Shown one piece after another: positions 18,333 through 63,690 of a stretch of 64,000 nucleotides of DNA (positions are counted from its first letter, which is position 1; the number at the start of each line of letters is the position of its first letter). The notes under the pieces were generated by a model. That model searched no databases and was not told where the DNA came from. It saw only the letters and a list, made by a program, of their open reading frames with translations. This DNA comes from Candidatus Heimdallarchaeota archaeon. GTDB lineage: Archaea > Asgardarchaeota > Heimdallarchaeia > Hodarchaeales > Hodarchaeaceae. The translations under genes and the position numbers were made by a program. The stretch spans positions 2,738,155 to 2,802,154 of the forward strand of contig CP070695.1 in assembly GCA_020353515.1 (NCBI GenBank), given 5' to 3'.

Positions 18333-19625
18333 GTGAACATTAAGAATGAGGAAATTTCATTGAGTAAACCAAAGATCTATTGGATTCTGATAGTCGTAGT
18401 ATTCTTTCTAACTTTACTTACGACTAACAATGCGAATTTACACGTAAAAACAGTACAAGGGGCAGTTAAGCCCACTCTTGAGTCTGAAATCGTTATAGGA
18501 ATCGATTTAAGCCATAATAATGATGTTAATTCAACAGAAATAGCGAATTTAACATCAATCCTTAATACAACTTTTACTCAACAAATTGTATTCCTCAATG
18601 AGAAATTTACTTCAGAAAGTCTATCAGACATTGATGTTTTAACTATATTGGCACCTACAACACCTTTTGATCTTGATCTAGAGGAAGCAAAGGTTGTAGA
18701 AGAATTCATAAAAGCTGGGAAGTCTTTATTGATAGCTTCTGGTTTTAGGAACCAGACAAGAGAACCACTAAACGATCTTCTAAACGTTTATGGTTTAAAA
18801 TTTAATTTTTCAAGATCTATAATATCAGAGAGAGCATTGGCAAGAAACTTTACAACCCCAAAGATTCCTTTAACGGAGAATATTTCTCAACTTATTTGTC
18901 CAAACGGACTGGGAATTTCATTTAATGAATCCAAATTAGAAAGCTATCAATCTCCTGCAATTTTATTTTATAACCCCATTTTACTTGTTAATTCAGATGA
19001 AGCCCCATCTGAGAACAATACTTTGATTTCAAGTCTAGAGTTTGAAAATGGGGCTCGAATATTGGCTATAGGATCAGCAGAAATGTTTAATAACAGTTAT
19101 ATTGAACCACTTGCCAATACTTCAAGTATTTTCTTAGATAACACAGATTTTTTTGTTAATGCAATTAAATGGTTAGGAAGAAATACAGGAATCATAAATT
19201 TCTATGATCCGTGGGTAGACTTAGATGGTCAATCCATCAATATTGGTACAATTATTAATGGAAATGTCACTTTGGTGAATTCTCAAAACCAAAGTCTTTC
19301 ACAAGTTCAACTAACGATCTCCATTGAACGAACAGGTTCCATTTTAAGCTCAAGAGGAATGCAAATTTCACCAAATAATGCTTCAAGATATTTTGGTTGG
19401 GTGAGTACCGAAGATCTAGGTTTTGGTTATTGTGATATAATTTTTATGGCAATTCACATCGGATATATGCCAATTGAATTGACAGCTGGCCGTGTATACT
19501 TAGAACCTCCATTTCCCTCACGTCAAAACCCAAATCCTGCTATAATGGGATTATTTCTGGCATCTTCTTTCCTATTCGTATCAAGCGCAATATTCATTTA
19601 CTTAAATCTAGAAAAGAAGGAATAG
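18333..19625 (+). CDS. OST48/Wbp1-like oligosaccharyltransferase subunit (GIFT-like domain, C-terminal TM)
   Basis: N-terminal hydrophobic signal, ENGARILAIGSAEMFNN, N..F..NAIKWL...G, C-terminal TM ending LNLEKKE; 430 aa. Confidence 0.7.
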   Translation: MNIKNEEISLSKPKIYWILIVVVFFLTLLTTNNANLHVKTVQGAVKPTLESEIVIGIDLSHNNDVNSTEIANLTSILNTTFTQQIVFLNEKFTSESLSDIDVLTILAPTTPFDLDLEEAKVVEEFIKAGKSLLIASGFRNQTREPLNDLLNVYGLKFNFSRSIISERALARNFTTPKIPLTENISQLICPNGLGISFNESKLESYQSPAILFYNPILLVNSDEAPSENNTLISSLEFENGARILAIGSAEMFNNSYIEPLANTSSIFLDNTDFFVNAIKWLGRNTGIINFYDPWVDLDGQSINIGTIINGNVTLVNSQNQSLSQVQLTISIERTGSILSSRGMQISPNNASRYFGWVSTEDLGFGYCDIIFMAIHIGYMPIELTAGRVYLEPPFPSRQNPNPAIMGLFLASSFLFVSSAIFIYLNLEKKE

Positions 19626-20723: not shown

Positions 20724-21107
20724 ATGATTACCAAGAGGTTAATTGATATGAAAACTCCAACATTGATTGGTACACTAATATTTGTGATCAGTCTCATGAT
20801 CGCAATCATTATCGCACTACCACCCTACCCTGAGCGTGCTTATATTGAATTATTTTTGATCTGGTTCGGTGGAATTGTTGGGGGTATAGGACTTGGGTAT
20901 GGTAATCGCGAGAGTTTTGGGTTTGATGAAGGAAATAACGCAACTATTGTTGGAGGTCTCGGCCTCGGATGGAGCATTCTTGTTTCATTTTTGATGTATT
21001 ATTATGGCCATCCTCCGATTGATAGAGTCATTATATCATTTGTTGGTTCACTTGTGGCAATCCTTGGCTTATATATGCTGGTTGTATCCACTCAAGAATC
21101 TTATTAG
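20724..21107 (+). CDS. Hypothetical 4-TM Gly-rich membrane protein
   Basis: Four hydrophobic segments with GxxxG-like motifs. Confidence 0.7.
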   Translation: MITKRLIDMKTPTLIGTLIFVISLMIAIIIALPPYPERAYIELFLIWFGGIVGGIGLGYGNRESFGFDEGNNATIVGGLGLGWSILVSFLMYYYGHPPIDRVIISFVGSLVAILGLYMLVVSTQESY

Positions 21108-22981: not shown

Positions 22982-23299
22982 ATGAGTTCTGACCTTGAAG
23001 GATGGTTTAACTTCCCTAAACCCGTAAAATTGCTGGATATCTCTCTTATTGGGTATATTGTCATTTTAGTAGTTGCAACAATACTTTACTTGGCTATTCT
23101 CGACCATACCGTACAGAATTTAATGCCTATATTTCTTACAGCCATATTAGCCTTGATTACATGGAACTTTCGGACACAGTTATTAAAAACCTCAGATCCT
23201 AACATGCATAAACGGTACTTTCGTGAATGGATTGTTATTTGTATTTGCATCATTGTGTTTATTGGAGTAATTCTCATTGTTTATCCAGTAACATATTAA
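22982..23299 (+). CDS. Putative DAD1/Ost2-like oligosaccharyltransferase subunit (3 TM)
   Basis: PKPVKLLD before TM1, NFRTQL after TM2, KRYFREW before TM3; 105 aa; GAGGA RBS. Confidence 0.65.
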   Translation: MSSDLEGWFNFPKPVKLLDISLIGYIVILVVATILYLAILDHTVQNLMPIFLTAILALITWNFRTQLLKTSDPNMHKRYFREWIVICICIIVFIGVILIVYPVTY

Positions 23300-23455
23300 T
23301 TAAAATTACGTTTTCTGATTAAAATTTTGAAGAAAAAAATATCTTCTCACTAGTGATGATGTTATCCCCGGATGAGTTGTGTTACAACTATGAACGTAAG
23401 AAGAGCCGTCTGAAGTGATTCCTGAAGTTCAATTTTGAATATGAGATGAATAGAA

Positions 23456-23791: not shown

Positions 23792-23864
23792 TAGCCCCGC
23801 TCAGATTCGAACTGAGGTCACTAGGGCCAAAGCCTAGAATGATGGTCCGCTACACTACGGGGCT
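23792..23864 (-). tRNA. tRNA-Gln(TTG), intronless
   Basis: AGCCCCG/CGGGGCT acceptor stem with A1-U72, CTAGG-CTTTGGC-CCTAG anticodon arm, TTCGAAT. Confidence 0.95.
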
Positions 23865-24082
23865 GAAAGCGCTGCGACAACACACATCACCCTGATTGCA
23901 GATTCAGGGCAACAAACTTCACATGCACGACATTCAAAACATGAATCTGGATTTAAGACTTTTATCTTTTCTCTTTTTTCTGCAATCAGGATTTCTGCTG
24001 GACAACTACGGACACATTTCAAACAGCGAATGCAGAGGTCGTGATCGATGAGTATATGAGGAGCTATTCTTTCGCACCTCAT
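23855..24082 (-). CDS. 2x[4Fe-4S] ferredoxin
   Basis: CIRCLKCVRSCP and CFECRACEVCCP; ATGA overlap with upstream ribophorin gene. Confidence 0.88.
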   Translation of the reverse strand: MRCERIAPHILIDHDLCIRCLKCVRSCPAEILIAEKREKIKVLNPDSCFECRACEVCCPESAIRVMCVVAALSAP

Positions 24083-26145
24083 TTCGTAAGGAGAGATCGT
24101 AAATCAATTAGAACCTTATCAACTTCATTATTCACCTTACGAAGCTGTTTATCGTAATTAATTTTCAGTTTTGCGTACGCGTCCTTTCCAATTCTCCCTT
24201 GAGTTTTTTTCCGTTCAAGTGATTCAATGTTTATGAGAATGTCTTCACGATTAGCTTCTGCTACCTCAATCGATCTCATAGATATTCTGTATCGTGGTCC
24301 TTCTTCTGCTAATTTCTTTGATATTGATACAATTGATCGGTCGATTCCTTGTTGTCGATTTCTCAAAATTATTCGGGTCTGTTCATACTCTCGCGCACTA
24401 ATATTCCTTGATTTCCGTTTTCGATCAAGTCTTAATATTTGTTCTCGAATAGCTGTTTTTTCTTCATAAGTTTTAACAAAATCCTTAATTAGATCCAAAG
24501 GAATTTCTTCTATAGCAATTTTCTTTCCTCTAAAACCAAAAGAAAGATTTCTCACAAATATATAGCTCAATCCTATTAGTAAAAAGAAGATACTGAGAGA
24601 AAGTGGGACTTGGACAAAATTAGATAGAGGAATATTAAACTCAACACTCAAGTAATGATTGCTTAGGGGGGTTAGATTTTCAAAACCGAGTGCCAATCCC
24701 TTTTTATCAAAAAGGCTAAGAAGGGTTCTTTCTCGAATGGAGGAATTATAGTTAGATTCTCTTGAAGTACTTGTTTCAATTCCATTGGTAATTCTAGTTA
24801 TATTGTATCTTGAACCAGATGGTAGTAAGAGAGCCCATTCAAATTTTTGAACAGTCCAATTAAAACTCAATGATAAAGGTATTTGTAATTGTACTTTCCC
24901 ACCTCCTAAGTCCTTCATGATATCGGCAACTCGTTCTCGATAAGATATATGCATGTCATATTTTTCATGTTGCTCTATTTGGACTCTTGGGGTGATTTCG
25001 ACGAGTTTTCTGTTGACTACGGGATCAGAAGATACTGATGGTGTAAGATTCCCATAATTATCTCGAAATCCAATCTTTTGAGCACTTTCGGGCAGATAAA
25101 AACTGATCTTAGGAAATGTAGGACCTCCAAGGGCTGTCGAAAGACTTGATCCTGACTTTATACCAATATTTTGGAGCTCAATTTCATAAGTAGTAGTTAC
25201 AAATCCCCATTCTGAGACGGTAACTACTGATTTTAGCTCGGTAAACTCAATTTTTGTGTTTACATTCTGGTAGTATTCAAATGAGAGATATGACGTGAAA
25301 TTTGTTCTAAGAGTAGGGATGTATGCTGGAATAAACTCTCGATTTTCGAGAGATGTTAGGTTATACCCTCCATATTCAGAATTGCTTAAGACTCGTCTAT
25401 CAATGGTTGAAAGTCCAGTTACATTCCTGAAGATCAGACCATATGTTGTATTTCCTGAAAAATCACCTTGAAAATAATCACTTGTTGGTTGAATAGACTC
25501 ATTTTTCACTCTAACATTAGTATCTTGGCCTAATTTCCATTCGAGTTCATAAGAAGTAATTGGCATAGAGAGTAACGGGAGAAAACTGAGATTAAATTGA
25601 TATGGATGGGCTGATTCTTCCAATTTAGCTCCTTCATCAAATGTTACTGCATTTGGATGATCCATCTCGATAATTATTGATACACTTTGGTTCTCCTCAA
25701 CTGAAGGAGTTTGGATAACTAATAAAACCGAATTGTTTTCCTCTAGTTGAGCTAAAACCATCGAATCTGAGTCTGTCTTATTCGGAGAAAAAATCCGCCA
25801 AAATTTGGTATCCTCAAATTCATGAGACGGAATTGTATAATTAAAGGCATCAATAGGCTGTGATGCGTAGTTATAAAGGTTGATTTCTGTCCGAGAGGTT
25901 GTATAACCATATTCATTCGCTGTGATTACACGACTAACATTTATTTGATGACTTTTGTTGGTAAACGTAGAAACATCTAAAAAATTGAGGGAATCAAAAT
26001 CAATCTGTTCTATACCATCTTGGTAGAGATTCCTAGTTATCATTGAGGATCCATGGTCAATCTTGTAATTTATTGTTACAAAGAGGGATGAAACTATCAT
26101 AACAATGAGAAAAATATTCAAGCTTGAATCAAGTTTCTTTTTCAT
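24079..26145 (-). CDS. Ribophorin I (OST1/RPN1)-like protein
   Basis: Signal/TM, two luminal repeats (VSRVITANEYG; VVTVSEWGFVTTTYEIELQNIG, FRDNYGNL, ITPR), TM, cytosolic helical tail. Confidence 0.82.
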   Translation of the reverse strand: MKKKLDSSLNIFLIVMIVSSLFVTINYKIDHGSSMITRNLYQDGIEQIDFDSLNFLDVSTFTNKSHQINVSRVITANEYGYTTSRTEINLYNYASQPIDAFNYTIPSHEFEDTKFWRIFSPNKTDSDSMVLAQLEENNSVLLVIQTPSVEENQSVSIIIEMDHPNAVTFDEGAKLEESAHPYQFNLSFLPLLSMPITSYELEWKLGQDTNVRVKNESIQPTSDYFQGDFSGNTTYGLIFRNVTGLSTIDRRVLSNSEYGGYNLTSLENREFIPAYIPTLRTNFTSYLSFEYYQNVNTKIEFTELKSVVTVSEWGFVTTTYEIELQNIGIKSGSSLSTALGGPTFPKISFYLPESAQKIGFRDNYGNLTPSVSSDPVVNRKLVEITPRVQIEQHEKYDMHISYRERVADIMKDLGGGKVQLQIPLSLSFNWTVQKFEWALLLPSGSRYNITRITNGIETSTSRESNYNSSIRERTLLSLFDKKGLALGFENLTPLSNHYLSVEFNIPLSNFVQVPLSLSIFFLLIGLSYIFVRNLSFGFRGKKIAIEEIPLDLIKDFVKTYEEKTAIREQILRLDRKRKSRNISAREYEQTRIILRNRQQGIDRSIVSISKKLAEEGPRYRISMRSIEVAEANREDILINIESLERKKTQGRIGKDAYAKLKINYDKQLRKVNNEVDKVLIDLRSLLTK

Positions 26146-26699: not shown

Positions 26700-28217
26700 A
26701 TGACATCTAGGTTTCTTCAAGCTATTCGACCGTTCATGTCAATAACTCCAGAAGTCGTCAAACCGACTCGTGAGGTTCACTTCAATGAAAAAGTAGTGTG
26801 GACTTTTGCTGCTTTGGTTATTTATTTTGTAATGGCATCTACTCCGATAATTGGAGCTCAACATGAAGGAGCTGACCCTTTTGCTTTTATGCGTACTATT
26901 ACTGCCTCAACTCAAGGATCACTAGCAGAGCTTGGAATTGGCCCGATAGTAACAGCAGGACTCATTATGCAAATTTTAGTAGGATCTAAAATTATTTCTG
27001 TTAATATGGGAGACCCTGAGGAAAGATCTCTCTATACAGGGGCGCAAAAGGTCATGTCAGTTGCAATGACAATTATTGAAGCAGCTGCATTCTTGATTGG
27101 GGGAACTTATGGAACGAACCTTGATCTTCAGACTCAACTGGCGATCATTGCTCAACTATTAGCAGCAGGTATTATCATCATCCTTCTTGATGAGATGATT
27201 CAGAAAGGTTGGGGATTAGGATCGGGTATTTCTTTGTTCATTGCGGGAGGTGTTGGATTGCAAATTTTTCAAGGATTATTCGCGGCACAGTCCTTTTTGG
27301 AGGGACCAGAACCTGGTGTAACTTCAATGAGAGGAATTGCTCTTGCATTTCTTGCCTGGACAACACGACGAGGTCCCATTGAGGCAATTGGAGCATTATT
27401 TTTCCGTTATAGCCCTGCCGAGAATGTCAATTTACCTTCCCTCTCTCTCCTTTCTGTGATAGCTACTGTAGTTGTGTTCATCATTGTGATATATTTTGAA
27501 TCAATGCGGATTGAAATTCCAATTTCATACGCCCAATACAAAGGAATTCGTTCCACTTATCCGATTAAACTACTCTACGTGTCGAATATTCCTGTCATTT
27601 TAACTTCAGCTGTTTTTGCAGATATTTACTTCATTGCTCAGATGGTTTGGAATGCAAGCGGTGGAACTGGGACATCAAATCCTCTGGCTTTGTTTTTGGG
27701 AACCTTCAGTGTTGATGAAACGTCTCAGCAATATGTCCCTGAAGGTGGCCTTGTATATTTCTTAACTCCACCTCGGTCGCTTGTTGGAGATTTCGGGGTT
27801 CTTAATCTTAGTAGGGGGTTAGAAAGCCTTATGCCCTCCTTATTTCGCGCATTAATTTATGCTATTATCCTGATTGTGCTTTCAGTTATCTTCTCAGTGA
27901 TGTGGTTAGAAACTGCAGGAATGGGCCCTCGGGATGTTGCTAGTCAATTTCTGCAATCAGGAATGCAGATGCCAGGATGGCGACGAAGTAAAAAGATTGT
28001 TGAACGTAGATTAGAAATGTATATTCCTACAATAGCGGTCATAGGTGGATTGTTCATAGGTTCTCTTGCTGCTTTTGCAGATTTCCTAGGAGCAATAGGT
28101 TCTGGAATGGGTATTCTACTCTCGGTCAGTATTATGAGGCAATATTTTGAACTGATAAGCAAGGAAAGAGTCGCAGAGATGAATCCTGCTTTACGTGGTT
28201 TCTTAGGAATAAAATAG
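26700..28217 (+). CDS. secY: Protein translocase SecY/Sec61-alpha
   Basis: GSLAELGIGPIVTAG, LLDEMIQKGWGLGSGISLFI, YPIKLLYVSNIPVIL, GAIGSGMGILL. Confidence 0.97.
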   Translation: MTSRFLQAIRPFMSITPEVVKPTREVHFNEKVVWTFAALVIYFVMASTPIIGAQHEGADPFAFMRTITASTQGSLAELGIGPIVTAGLIMQILVGSKIISVNMGDPEERSLYTGAQKVMSVAMTIIEAAAFLIGGTYGTNLDLQTQLAIIAQLLAAGIIIILLDEMIQKGWGLGSGISLFIAGGVGLQIFQGLFAAQSFLEGPEPGVTSMRGIALAFLAWTTRRGPIEAIGALFFRYSPAENVNLPSLSLLSVIATVVVFIIVIYFESMRIEIPISYAQYKGIRSTYPIKLLYVSNIPVILTSAVFADIYFIAQMVWNASGGTGTSNPLALFLGTFSVDETSQQYVPEGGLVYFLTPPRSLVGDFGVLNLSRGLESLMPSLFRALIYAIILIVLSVIFSVMWLETAGMGPRDVASQFLQSGMQMPGWRRSKKIVERRLEMYIPTIAVIGGLFIGSLAAFADFLGAIGSGMGILLSVSIMRQYFELISKERVAEMNPALRGFLGIK

Positions 28218-63234: not shown

Positions 63235-63690
63235 TTATGGGCCAGTTTTATAGTCATACATCACAATTGTGCCTGCTGCTGCTATAATGGTGATAATGAT
63301 ACCCAAGATTAATAATGTAATGGAAGTTCGCACATCATATGCAAAACGAGTGGAATAATGAATTAAATAAAGGCCTCCTGAACCTATTCCAAAAAATAAT
63401 CCTGCGATCAAGGACTCAACCAAGAACTGTTCACTTGTAGATTTGAAAATTGGTACAAGTTGGGTGGCTGTCTGTCCCATTGGCAATGGTTGTTCTGTAA
63501 GATTGTAAAGTCCTCCAGCTAAAATAAATACTGTAACAAACAATAAGACGGCTAGAATATATTTATGAGGAGCTTCGTAGGGGAGTTCAATATCAGGAAC
63601 CCTAAAATCGATTGTAGGTCTTTTTAGACCAGGAATCCAAGGAAGTCGAGGAAAATAAGCCTTCTCTTTATCAGGTTGTTTTTTTGACAT
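63235..63690 (-). CDS. OSTC/DC2 (OST3/OST6 family) oligosaccharyltransferase subunit
   Basis: FILAGGLYNL...P...G, EQFLVESL.AG..F..G..GL; 3 TM; 151 aa, no thioredoxin domain. Confidence 0.82.
   Translation of the reverse strand: MSKKQPDKEKAYFPRLPWIPGLKRPTIDFRVPDIELPYEAPHKYILAVLLFVTVFILAGGLYNLTEQPLPMGQTATQLVPIFKSTSEQFLVESLIAGLFFGIGSGGLYLIHYSTRFAYDVRTSITLLILGIIITIIAAAGTIVMYDYKTGP

Follow-up and report, generated by a model that had tools for sequence, protein, structure and literature searches.

A probable divergent DAD1/Ost2 homologue encoded among oligosaccharyltransferase and translocon genes of a Hodarchaeales archaeon

The locus and its oligosaccharyltransferase and Sec genes

The window, that is, the whole 64,000-nucleotide stretch of DNA analysed, covers positions 2,738,155-2,802,154 of one 4.94-Mb contig from a Candidatus Heimdallarchaeota archaeon of the Hodarchaeales. 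An earlier reading of this DNA, made without database searches (the sequence-only reading), had placed in it a 105-residue, three-transmembrane (TM) protein and proposed it as an archaeal counterpart of DAD1/Ost2. The ORF was borne out, with an ATG start on the plus strand and a GAGG about 10 nt upstream of the ATG (Table 1). The gene is present in one copy in the genome, and 18 of the 20 genomes sampled from its genus carry it. Close homologues, of equal length and 49-89% identity, fall into 64 database clusters labelled Hodarchaeales, Heimdallarchaeota or Promethearchaeota; their database names are 'hypothetical protein' or spurious transporter labels. Among 36 close homologues, W8, P12, K13, K16, D19, S21, Y36, D41, N46, L47, F51, T60, W61, W83, Y101 and P102 are invariant and R64 is nearly invariant; in the wide homologue set L18, N46, W83, Y101 and P102 are each at least 90% conserved, and a C-terminal YPVTY is also conserved. 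The ORF is a genuine, conserved gene.

Table 1. Positions of the DAD1/Ost2-like gene, its neighbours and other features discussed (window coordinates except for STT3/AglB).
Feature	Position	Strand	Description
STT3/AglB	G000:C1:2723463-2724659		13.5 kb before window start; 727-aa frame; E 8.4e-53
OST48/Wbp1-like gene	18333..19625	+	430 aa; signal/anchor, lumenal domains, one C-terminal TM; expected subcomplex-III partner
Multi-TM protein	20724-21107	+	127 aa; between OST48-like and DAD-like genes; no Pfam match
DAD1/Ost2-like gene	22982..23299	+	105 aa, ATG start; evidence: ORF, homologues, AlphaFold2 model, Foldseek/VIA, hhalign via f7
TGATGA and CTGA boxes	23347-23418	+	just downstream of DAD-like gene; no Rfam match at E<=1
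tRNA-Gln(TTG)	23792-23864	-	ARAGORN; Rfam 56.6 bits
Ferredoxin ORF	23855-24082	-	75 aa
Ribophorin I/Ost1-like gene	24079..26145	-	688 aa; Pfam Ribophorin_I E 8.8e-17, 61.7 bits, above cut-off
SecY/Sec61alpha translocon channel gene	26700..28217	+	Pfam SecY E 1.3e-64, Plug_translocon E 6e-11
Membrane protein	63235..63690	-	151 aa; weak match to OST3/OST6 membrane part

Several genes of the oligosaccharyltransferase (OST) lie close by. The sequence-only reading had put a ribophorin I-like gene at 780 nt and an OST48-like gene at about 3.4 kb from the DAD-like gene, and both distances were correct (3.36 kb for the latter); these two genes and the SecY gene are all within 5 kb of it. The Ribophorin_I match spans positions 5-436 of the 437 in the profile. 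The OST48-like protein matched Pfam OST48_N with an E-value of 1.1e-6 and 28.6 bits, below the 36-bit cut-off, and is the best OST48_N match in the genome. STT3/AglB, for which the genome gave a single match, is encoded some 37 kb away from the DAD-like gene, and the STT3, OST48-like, DAD-like, ribophorin I-like and SecY genes together span about 41 kb of the 4.9-Mb genome. Near the far end of the window, the 151-residue membrane protein matched positions 183-279 of the 294 in Pfam OST3_OST6 (E 0.0042, 17 bits, below cut-off; its sole match at E<=1, and E 0.03 in a six-frame search), and it is possibly a further OST- or translocon-associated subunit. The genome also encodes an OST3/6-like thioredoxin part (30.5 bits) and weak TM parts, so that the DAD-like gene co-occurs in the genome with OST48-like, ribophorin I, STT3 and OST3/6-like parts. 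A search with PF05817 (ribophorin II) gave no convincing Swp1/RPN2 homologue in the genome (best E 0.022).

Other features of the interval were recorded as well. In tblastn searches of other lineages, the 127-residue multi-TM protein showed no linkage to the DAD-like gene. The 5' end of the tRNA-Gln gene overlaps the last 10 nt of the ferredoxin ORF on the same strand, and at its start that ORF overlaps the ribophorin I-like stop.

Predicted fold and comparison with Ost2/DAD1

The AlphaFold2 model of the DAD-like protein (36 homologues, pLDDT 87) contained a short N-terminal helix (residues 3-9) followed by three long helices (residues 13-38, 44-69 and 73-100). Lys/Arg counts of two in the N-terminal stretch, zero in loop 1, five in loop 2 and zero in the C-terminal tail predict an N-in/C-out topology under the positive-inside rule. 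In Ost2, too, the N-terminal helix is cytoplasmic (PMC7226087).

A Foldseek search of 350,542 PDB chains with this model returned OST2 and DAD1 chains in the top five places (8agc_D, 6ezn_B, 7oci_B, 6c26_2 and 6s7t_D; TMq 0.64-0.71, probability 0.97-1.00). The sixth chain of this group, the DAD1 chain 6s7o_D, ranked 23 with a TMq of 0.65, and all other matches listed had a TMq of 0.54 or less. Foldseek E-values for the Ost2/DAD1 chains were 0.16-0.64, as expected for a small helical protein. Upon re-alignment of the Foldseek list with VIA, the six Ost2/DAD1 entries occupied ranks 1-6 (Z 9.0-10.5, rmsd 2.9-3.2 Å, 97-99 residues), followed by Vtc1 with a Z of 8.4. Three-helix bundles are common, and in a VIA search independent of Foldseek DAD1 (Z 10.1, rmsd 3.2) tied with BAR domains (Z 10-10.5, rmsd >5 Å). 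The first row of an ESM Atlas shape search was a fungal cluster with 100% PF02109 members (TM 0.74, rmsd 2.3 Å over 95 residues), and the next rows were Thorarchaeota and Promethearchaeota clusters of hypothetical proteins. The feature (language-model) search of the same Atlas found no DAD cluster, and its own lower-quality model matched generic TM proteins. The structural result was replicated with a second model, that of L025 (25% identical, pLDDT 86), a member of the Heimdallarchaeial subfamily f7: the six Ost2/DAD1 entries again took ranks 1-6, after which TM fell below 0.53. TM values of the Ost2/DAD1 chains against the two models ranged from 0.61 to 0.71. Ost2 structures first became available in January 2018 and may have been part of the AlphaFold2 training set. 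Among PDB chains, the predicted fold of an N-terminal helix and three TM helices is closest to the solved Ost2/DAD1.

DAD1/Ost2 (PF02109; 6S7O and 6S7T in human, 6EZN, 6C26, 7OCI and 8AGC in yeast) is the epsilon subunit of the eukaryotic OST. The DAD-like protein has a similar size (105 residues versus 113-130) and the same arrangement of an N-terminal helix and three TM helices with a cytoplasmic N-terminus, predicted in the archaeal case. Collinear anchors in the alignments are a P-x3-K-L-L-D before TM1, an invariant Asn in loop 1 (paired in one alignment), an R-x-Q ending TM2 and an R-x-F-x2-aromatic before TM3. The two differ in several respects. Identity in the structural alignments is only 12-21%; the DAD hallmark FPFN(S/A)FL(S/A)GF is missing in Hodarchaeales, which have QNLMPIFL there; the TM2-TM3 loop is four residues shorter than that of human DAD1; and the conserved C-terminal YPVTY stands against the NF(I/V)G of DAD1/Ost2.

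Sequence comparison with the DAD family

For sequence comparison, DAD1/Ost2 proteins were fetched with two approximate sequences of 76 and 78 residues, which were used as baits only; every protein fetched carries PF02109 and a source name, and the best identities were 96% and 100%. The fetched DAD1 proteins contain TPQRLKLLDAY, CLRIQINPQN and SPERAFADF, and the DAD1 strings quoted in the sequence-only reading were right. Its three proposed anchors (PKPVKLLD/PQRLKLLD, NFRTQL/CLRIQI and KRYFREW/ERAFADF) indeed occur in order and in register, within one collinear hhalign alignment of 81-85 columns to an animal plus fungal DAD profile. End points of the structural alignments gave offsets identical to those of hhalign (model residues 1-98 onto human DAD1 10-112, and 1-99 onto yeast Ost2 30-130). 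KLLD, R64-x-Q66 and R78-x-F80-x2-W83 align in register with the DAD motifs and are conserved in Hodarchaeales; of the anchor residues, P12, K13, K16, D19 and W83 belong to the invariant set of the 36 close homologues and R64 falls just short of it. In one alignment N46 pairs with N54 of FPFN, the FPF part of which is missing in the DAD-like protein and partly present in subfamily f7 (F-P-x-F-F).

Direct sequence similarity to DAD1/Ost2 was weak. The Pfam search found no PF02109 match to the protein at E<=1, and a six-frame genome scan with PF02109 found none at the locus. Because the protein stays below the PF02109 gathering cut-off (27 bits), it lies outside PF02109 as delimited and was filed in a homologous Asgard sister family. 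The only six-frame PF02109 match in the genome, at a chance-level E of 1.62, lies elsewhere and belongs to a 166-residue ABC-2-like membrane protein that is not a DAD candidate; the six-frame scan and Pfam together revealed no second DAD candidate in the genome. In direct hhalign runs, archaeal profiles of the own clade or the whole family gave P-values of 0.003-0.08 against DAD. Decoys in which the DAD columns were shuffled inside each TM or loop segment scored as well in 1, 10 and 20 of 150 cases for three archaeal profiles, and the three-motif match by itself is only marginally better than chance. A DAD profile restricted to metazoan proteins proved too narrow (hhalign P 0.02-0.06), and with the corresponding HMM archaeal sequences could not be told from their reversed versions; the addition of fungal Ost2 improved the comparison. 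A profile of the 36 close homologues retrieved only chance matches from all PDB sequences (SAC3, E 1.6).

The link to the DAD family came through subfamily f7. The Hodarchaeales clade matched f7 in hhalign with a probability of 96.9 and a P of 1.4e-10, and f7 matched the animal plus fungal DAD profile with a score of 28.6 (P 2.2e-4, probability 45%). None of 200 segment-shuffled decoys reached the latter score (decoy mean 12.3, sd 2.6, maximum 23.3). In the f7-DAD alignment, YPFEIKVMDL, F-P-x-F-F and SLRLKL correspond to TPxRLKLIDA, FPFNAF and SLRxQV, respectively. Members of f7 have DAD as their first Pfam match. PF02109 was the top Pfam match of the relatives L025 (E 8e-4, 20.1 bits, residues 15-106 onto positions 9-101 of 109), P0072 (E 0.006), L027 (E 0.022) and P0082 (E 0.1), and the second match of L036 (E 0.32); these five alignments are collinear and all below 27 bits, the best listed being 20.1. 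P0072 and P0082 are encoded on contigs of 561 and 1096 bases without useful gene context. Pfam matches of 80 family members involved 143 Pfam families, of which DAD was second by members matched (seven) and second by best E-value (5.7e-4); the noise families DUF2207_C (nine members), DUF5964 and DUF1129 (E 4.9e-4) lay near its level. An HMM of all archaeal members scored DAD/Ost2 proteins at a median of 6.1 and a maximum of 20.3 bits, compared with a median of 1.1 and a maximum of 9.0 for reversed sequences; as the DAD/Ost2 sequences are not independent of one another, only the direction of this difference counts. By profile comparison, f7 appears to bridge the DAD-like protein and the DAD family. 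Profile evidence for a relationship to DAD was marginal in direct comparisons and stronger by way of f7, and the proposed homology is supported by the predicted structure and the f7 intermediate more than by the three motifs from which it had started.

Distribution, proposed role and alternatives

The DAD-like family consists of conserved Asgard proteins of 92-120 residues. With the family profile (A2), 145 of the 301 genomes sampled from the phylum had matches at E<=0.001, nearly all of them one match per genome, and 21 representatives at E<=1e-3 came from an exhaustive phmmer search. Exact look-ups labelled representatives as Thorarchaeota, Lokiarchaeota/Promethearchaeota, Jordarchaeia, Atabeyarchaeia, Borrarchaeum, Wukongarchaeota, Baldrarchaeia and Heimdallarchaeota, all annotated as hypothetical. 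The Hodarchaeales clade matched the Wukong subfamily with an hhalign P of 6e-11, Heimdallarchaeaceae with 8e-8, the Thor subfamily with 1.2e-7 and the Loki subfamily with 0.002. In these profile comparisons the links of the clade to Thor and Wukong are strong and that to Loki is moderate. Relatives are probably present in Thor-, Wukong-, Baldr-, Jord-, Atabey- and Borrarchaeial genomes, and perhaps in Loki.

Gene order is conserved close to home. Of 18 related loci from f1/g1 genomes, 13 share the order GTPase, DAD-like, Trm112, ferredoxin, ribophorin I-like, and most of the genomes concerned in which both genes were located have the OST48-like gene 3-5 kb from the DAD-like gene. Linkage of the DAD-like gene to the ribophorin I-like and OST48-like genes was seen only in f1/g1 genomes: in four of five other lineages checked, ribophorin I lay at a distance of 1 Mb or on a different contig, and in the remaining one the search did not find it. 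This neighbourhood may reflect inherited gene order within one lineage, and it therefore supports the DAD reading only weakly. Conserved neighbours outside f1/g1 were RadA and Sua5 (f7, Wukong and f22), an A24 peptidase (f3, Wukong and Atabey), and AtpD, NAC, PAN and TFE (Thor, Loki and Atabey). OST48-like homologues were found in f1, f2, f7 and a few f3 genomes, and searches with the window's OST48-like protein found no such gene in some lineages that have DAD-like relatives. The f7 OST48-like proteins (L104-L111) have about 585-590 residues, compared with 430 in Hodarchaeales. Relatives of 92-117 residues at three Thorarchaeota loci (L032, L040 and L041), one Loki locus (L033) and one Atabey locus (L035) sit in a conserved block with NAC, PAN, an HTH regulator and TFE-alpha, joined by ATP synthase subunit D in the Thor and Atabey loci only; no glycosylation genes were found near these five loci.

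Complex prediction of the DAD-like and OST48-like proteins gave a score of 0.59 versus 0.00 for the best control and was rated as weak support. Of 80 solved complexes, 58 attained the mark used, as did 2 of 110 mismatched pairs; with a score of 0.60 or less, only 7 of these solved complexes did so, along with both mismatches. The runs agreed in at least 87% of contacts, and partner pLDDT was at least 77. DAD and OST48 being a textbook pair, resemblance to solved OST structures may underlie the score. On the preferred reading, the ORF probably encodes a divergent archaeal counterpart, by descent, of DAD1/Ost2, which in eukaryotes is the small three-TM subunit of OST subcomplex III. In yeast, the Wbp1 helix is enclosed by helices of Ost2 and Swp1, and Ost2 contacts TMH8-9 of Stt3 with its N-terminal helix (PMC7226087). 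By analogy, the TM helices of the DAD-like protein would pack around the one TM helix of its OST48/Wbp1-like partner, and its N-terminal cytoplasmic helix would contact AglB/STT3. Such a protein, with no catalytic role of its own, would be a membrane-embedded adaptor holding accessory subunits on the catalytic OST subunit, and the multi-subunit OST would sit at the cytoplasmic membrane beside the Sec translocon.

We consider it probable that the protein is both a divergent DAD1/Ost2 homologue and a structural adaptor in an AglB-based multi-subunit OST. It is very probably a true, highly divergent DAD1/Ost2 homologue; its placement as an adaptor subunit of the AglB-based OST in Hodarchaeales is put forward with somewhat less confidence. 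An unrelated small three-TM Asgard membrane protein, resembling DAD through a generic helical-hairpin arrangement and chance motifs, would account for the marginal direct profile comparisons and the absence of a Pfam DAD match. Other TM families match Pfam about as weakly, the wide VIA search ties DAD1 with unrelated helical proteins, the ESM Atlas feature search lacks a DAD cluster, and OST synteny is seen nowhere outside f1/g1 genomes, all of which would fit such a protein. Yet this explanation is unlikely, as models of two sequences with 25% identity both place Ost2/DAD1 first among 350,542 chains, with a clear drop in TM-score thereafter, and DAD is the first named cluster in the Atlas shape search. 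In addition, the f7-DAD match beats all 200 architecture-preserving decoys, DAD, specified in advance, comes second of the 143 Pfam families, and the register agrees between sequence and structural alignments.

A true DAD1/Ost2 homologue could also have served outside the OST in archaea, as an ancestral small membrane adaptor of another machine that was recruited to the OST on the eukaryotic stem. Relatives in Thor-, Baldr-, Jord- and Atabeyarchaeial genomes are compatible with this idea, as are the report of Wbp1, Swp1 and Ost2 from Heimdallarchaeia only (Eme et al., 2023; PMC10307638) and the examined Thorarchaeota loci, which adjoin ATP synthase subunit D, NAC and PAN and not glycosylation genes. 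We nevertheless regard it as improbable. In f1/g1 genomes the gene is linked to the OST48-like and ribophorin I-like genes; the OST48-like gene was found mainly in f1, f2 and f7, the families with the best DAD matches (best Pfam DAD matches in f2 and f7, best hhalign scores in f1 and f7); and the prediction with the OST48-like protein gave weak support, at 0.59 versus 0.00 for the best control.

OST subcomplex III (Ost2, Wbp1 and Swp1) was long held to be a eukaryotic invention. DAD/OST2 homologues have since been described in Gerdarchaeota (Cai et al., 2019; bioRxiv 10.1101/858530), and Eme et al. (2023; PMC10307638) reported Asgard homologues of Ost2/Dad1, Ost4, Ost5, Swp1 and Wbp1, of which Ost2, Wbp1 and Swp1 were confined to Heimdallarchaeia; the supplementary discussion of the latter study names only OST5 and WBP1 of these. 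The published Ost2/Dad1 makes the same claim for the same clade, Heimdallarchaeia including Hodarchaeales, beside Wbp1, Swp1 and Ost1; the correspondence was drawn at the level of the clade. The idea that the gene could be new to Asgard archaea is contradicted by these two reports, which leave no new subunit to be added to the known pre-eukaryotic OST: the finding is a correct rediscovery. It contributes an example from a closed genome of close spacing among the DAD-like, OST48-like, ribophorin I-like and Sec61alpha genes and, at 37 kb, STT3, a convenient set for co-expression, pull-down or cryo-EM, and it adds independent structural support for a homology barely visible to sequence methods.

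One modest addition over the literature is the probable presence of relatives beyond Heimdallarchaeia, in several other Asgard classes compared with the Heimdallarchaeia-only range published so far. These relatives are single-copy, 92-117 residues long and named 'hypothetical protein'. Whether the Ost2/DAD1-like family is pan-Asgard and not restricted to Heimdallarchaeia we judge to be evenly balanced. The distribution hints at an older and wider occurrence of the small subunit than published. If the family is pan-Asgard, the origin of the subunit would predate the Heimdallarchaeial radiation, and the protein would work with AglB, or with something else, in lineages without reported Wbp1 and Swp1.
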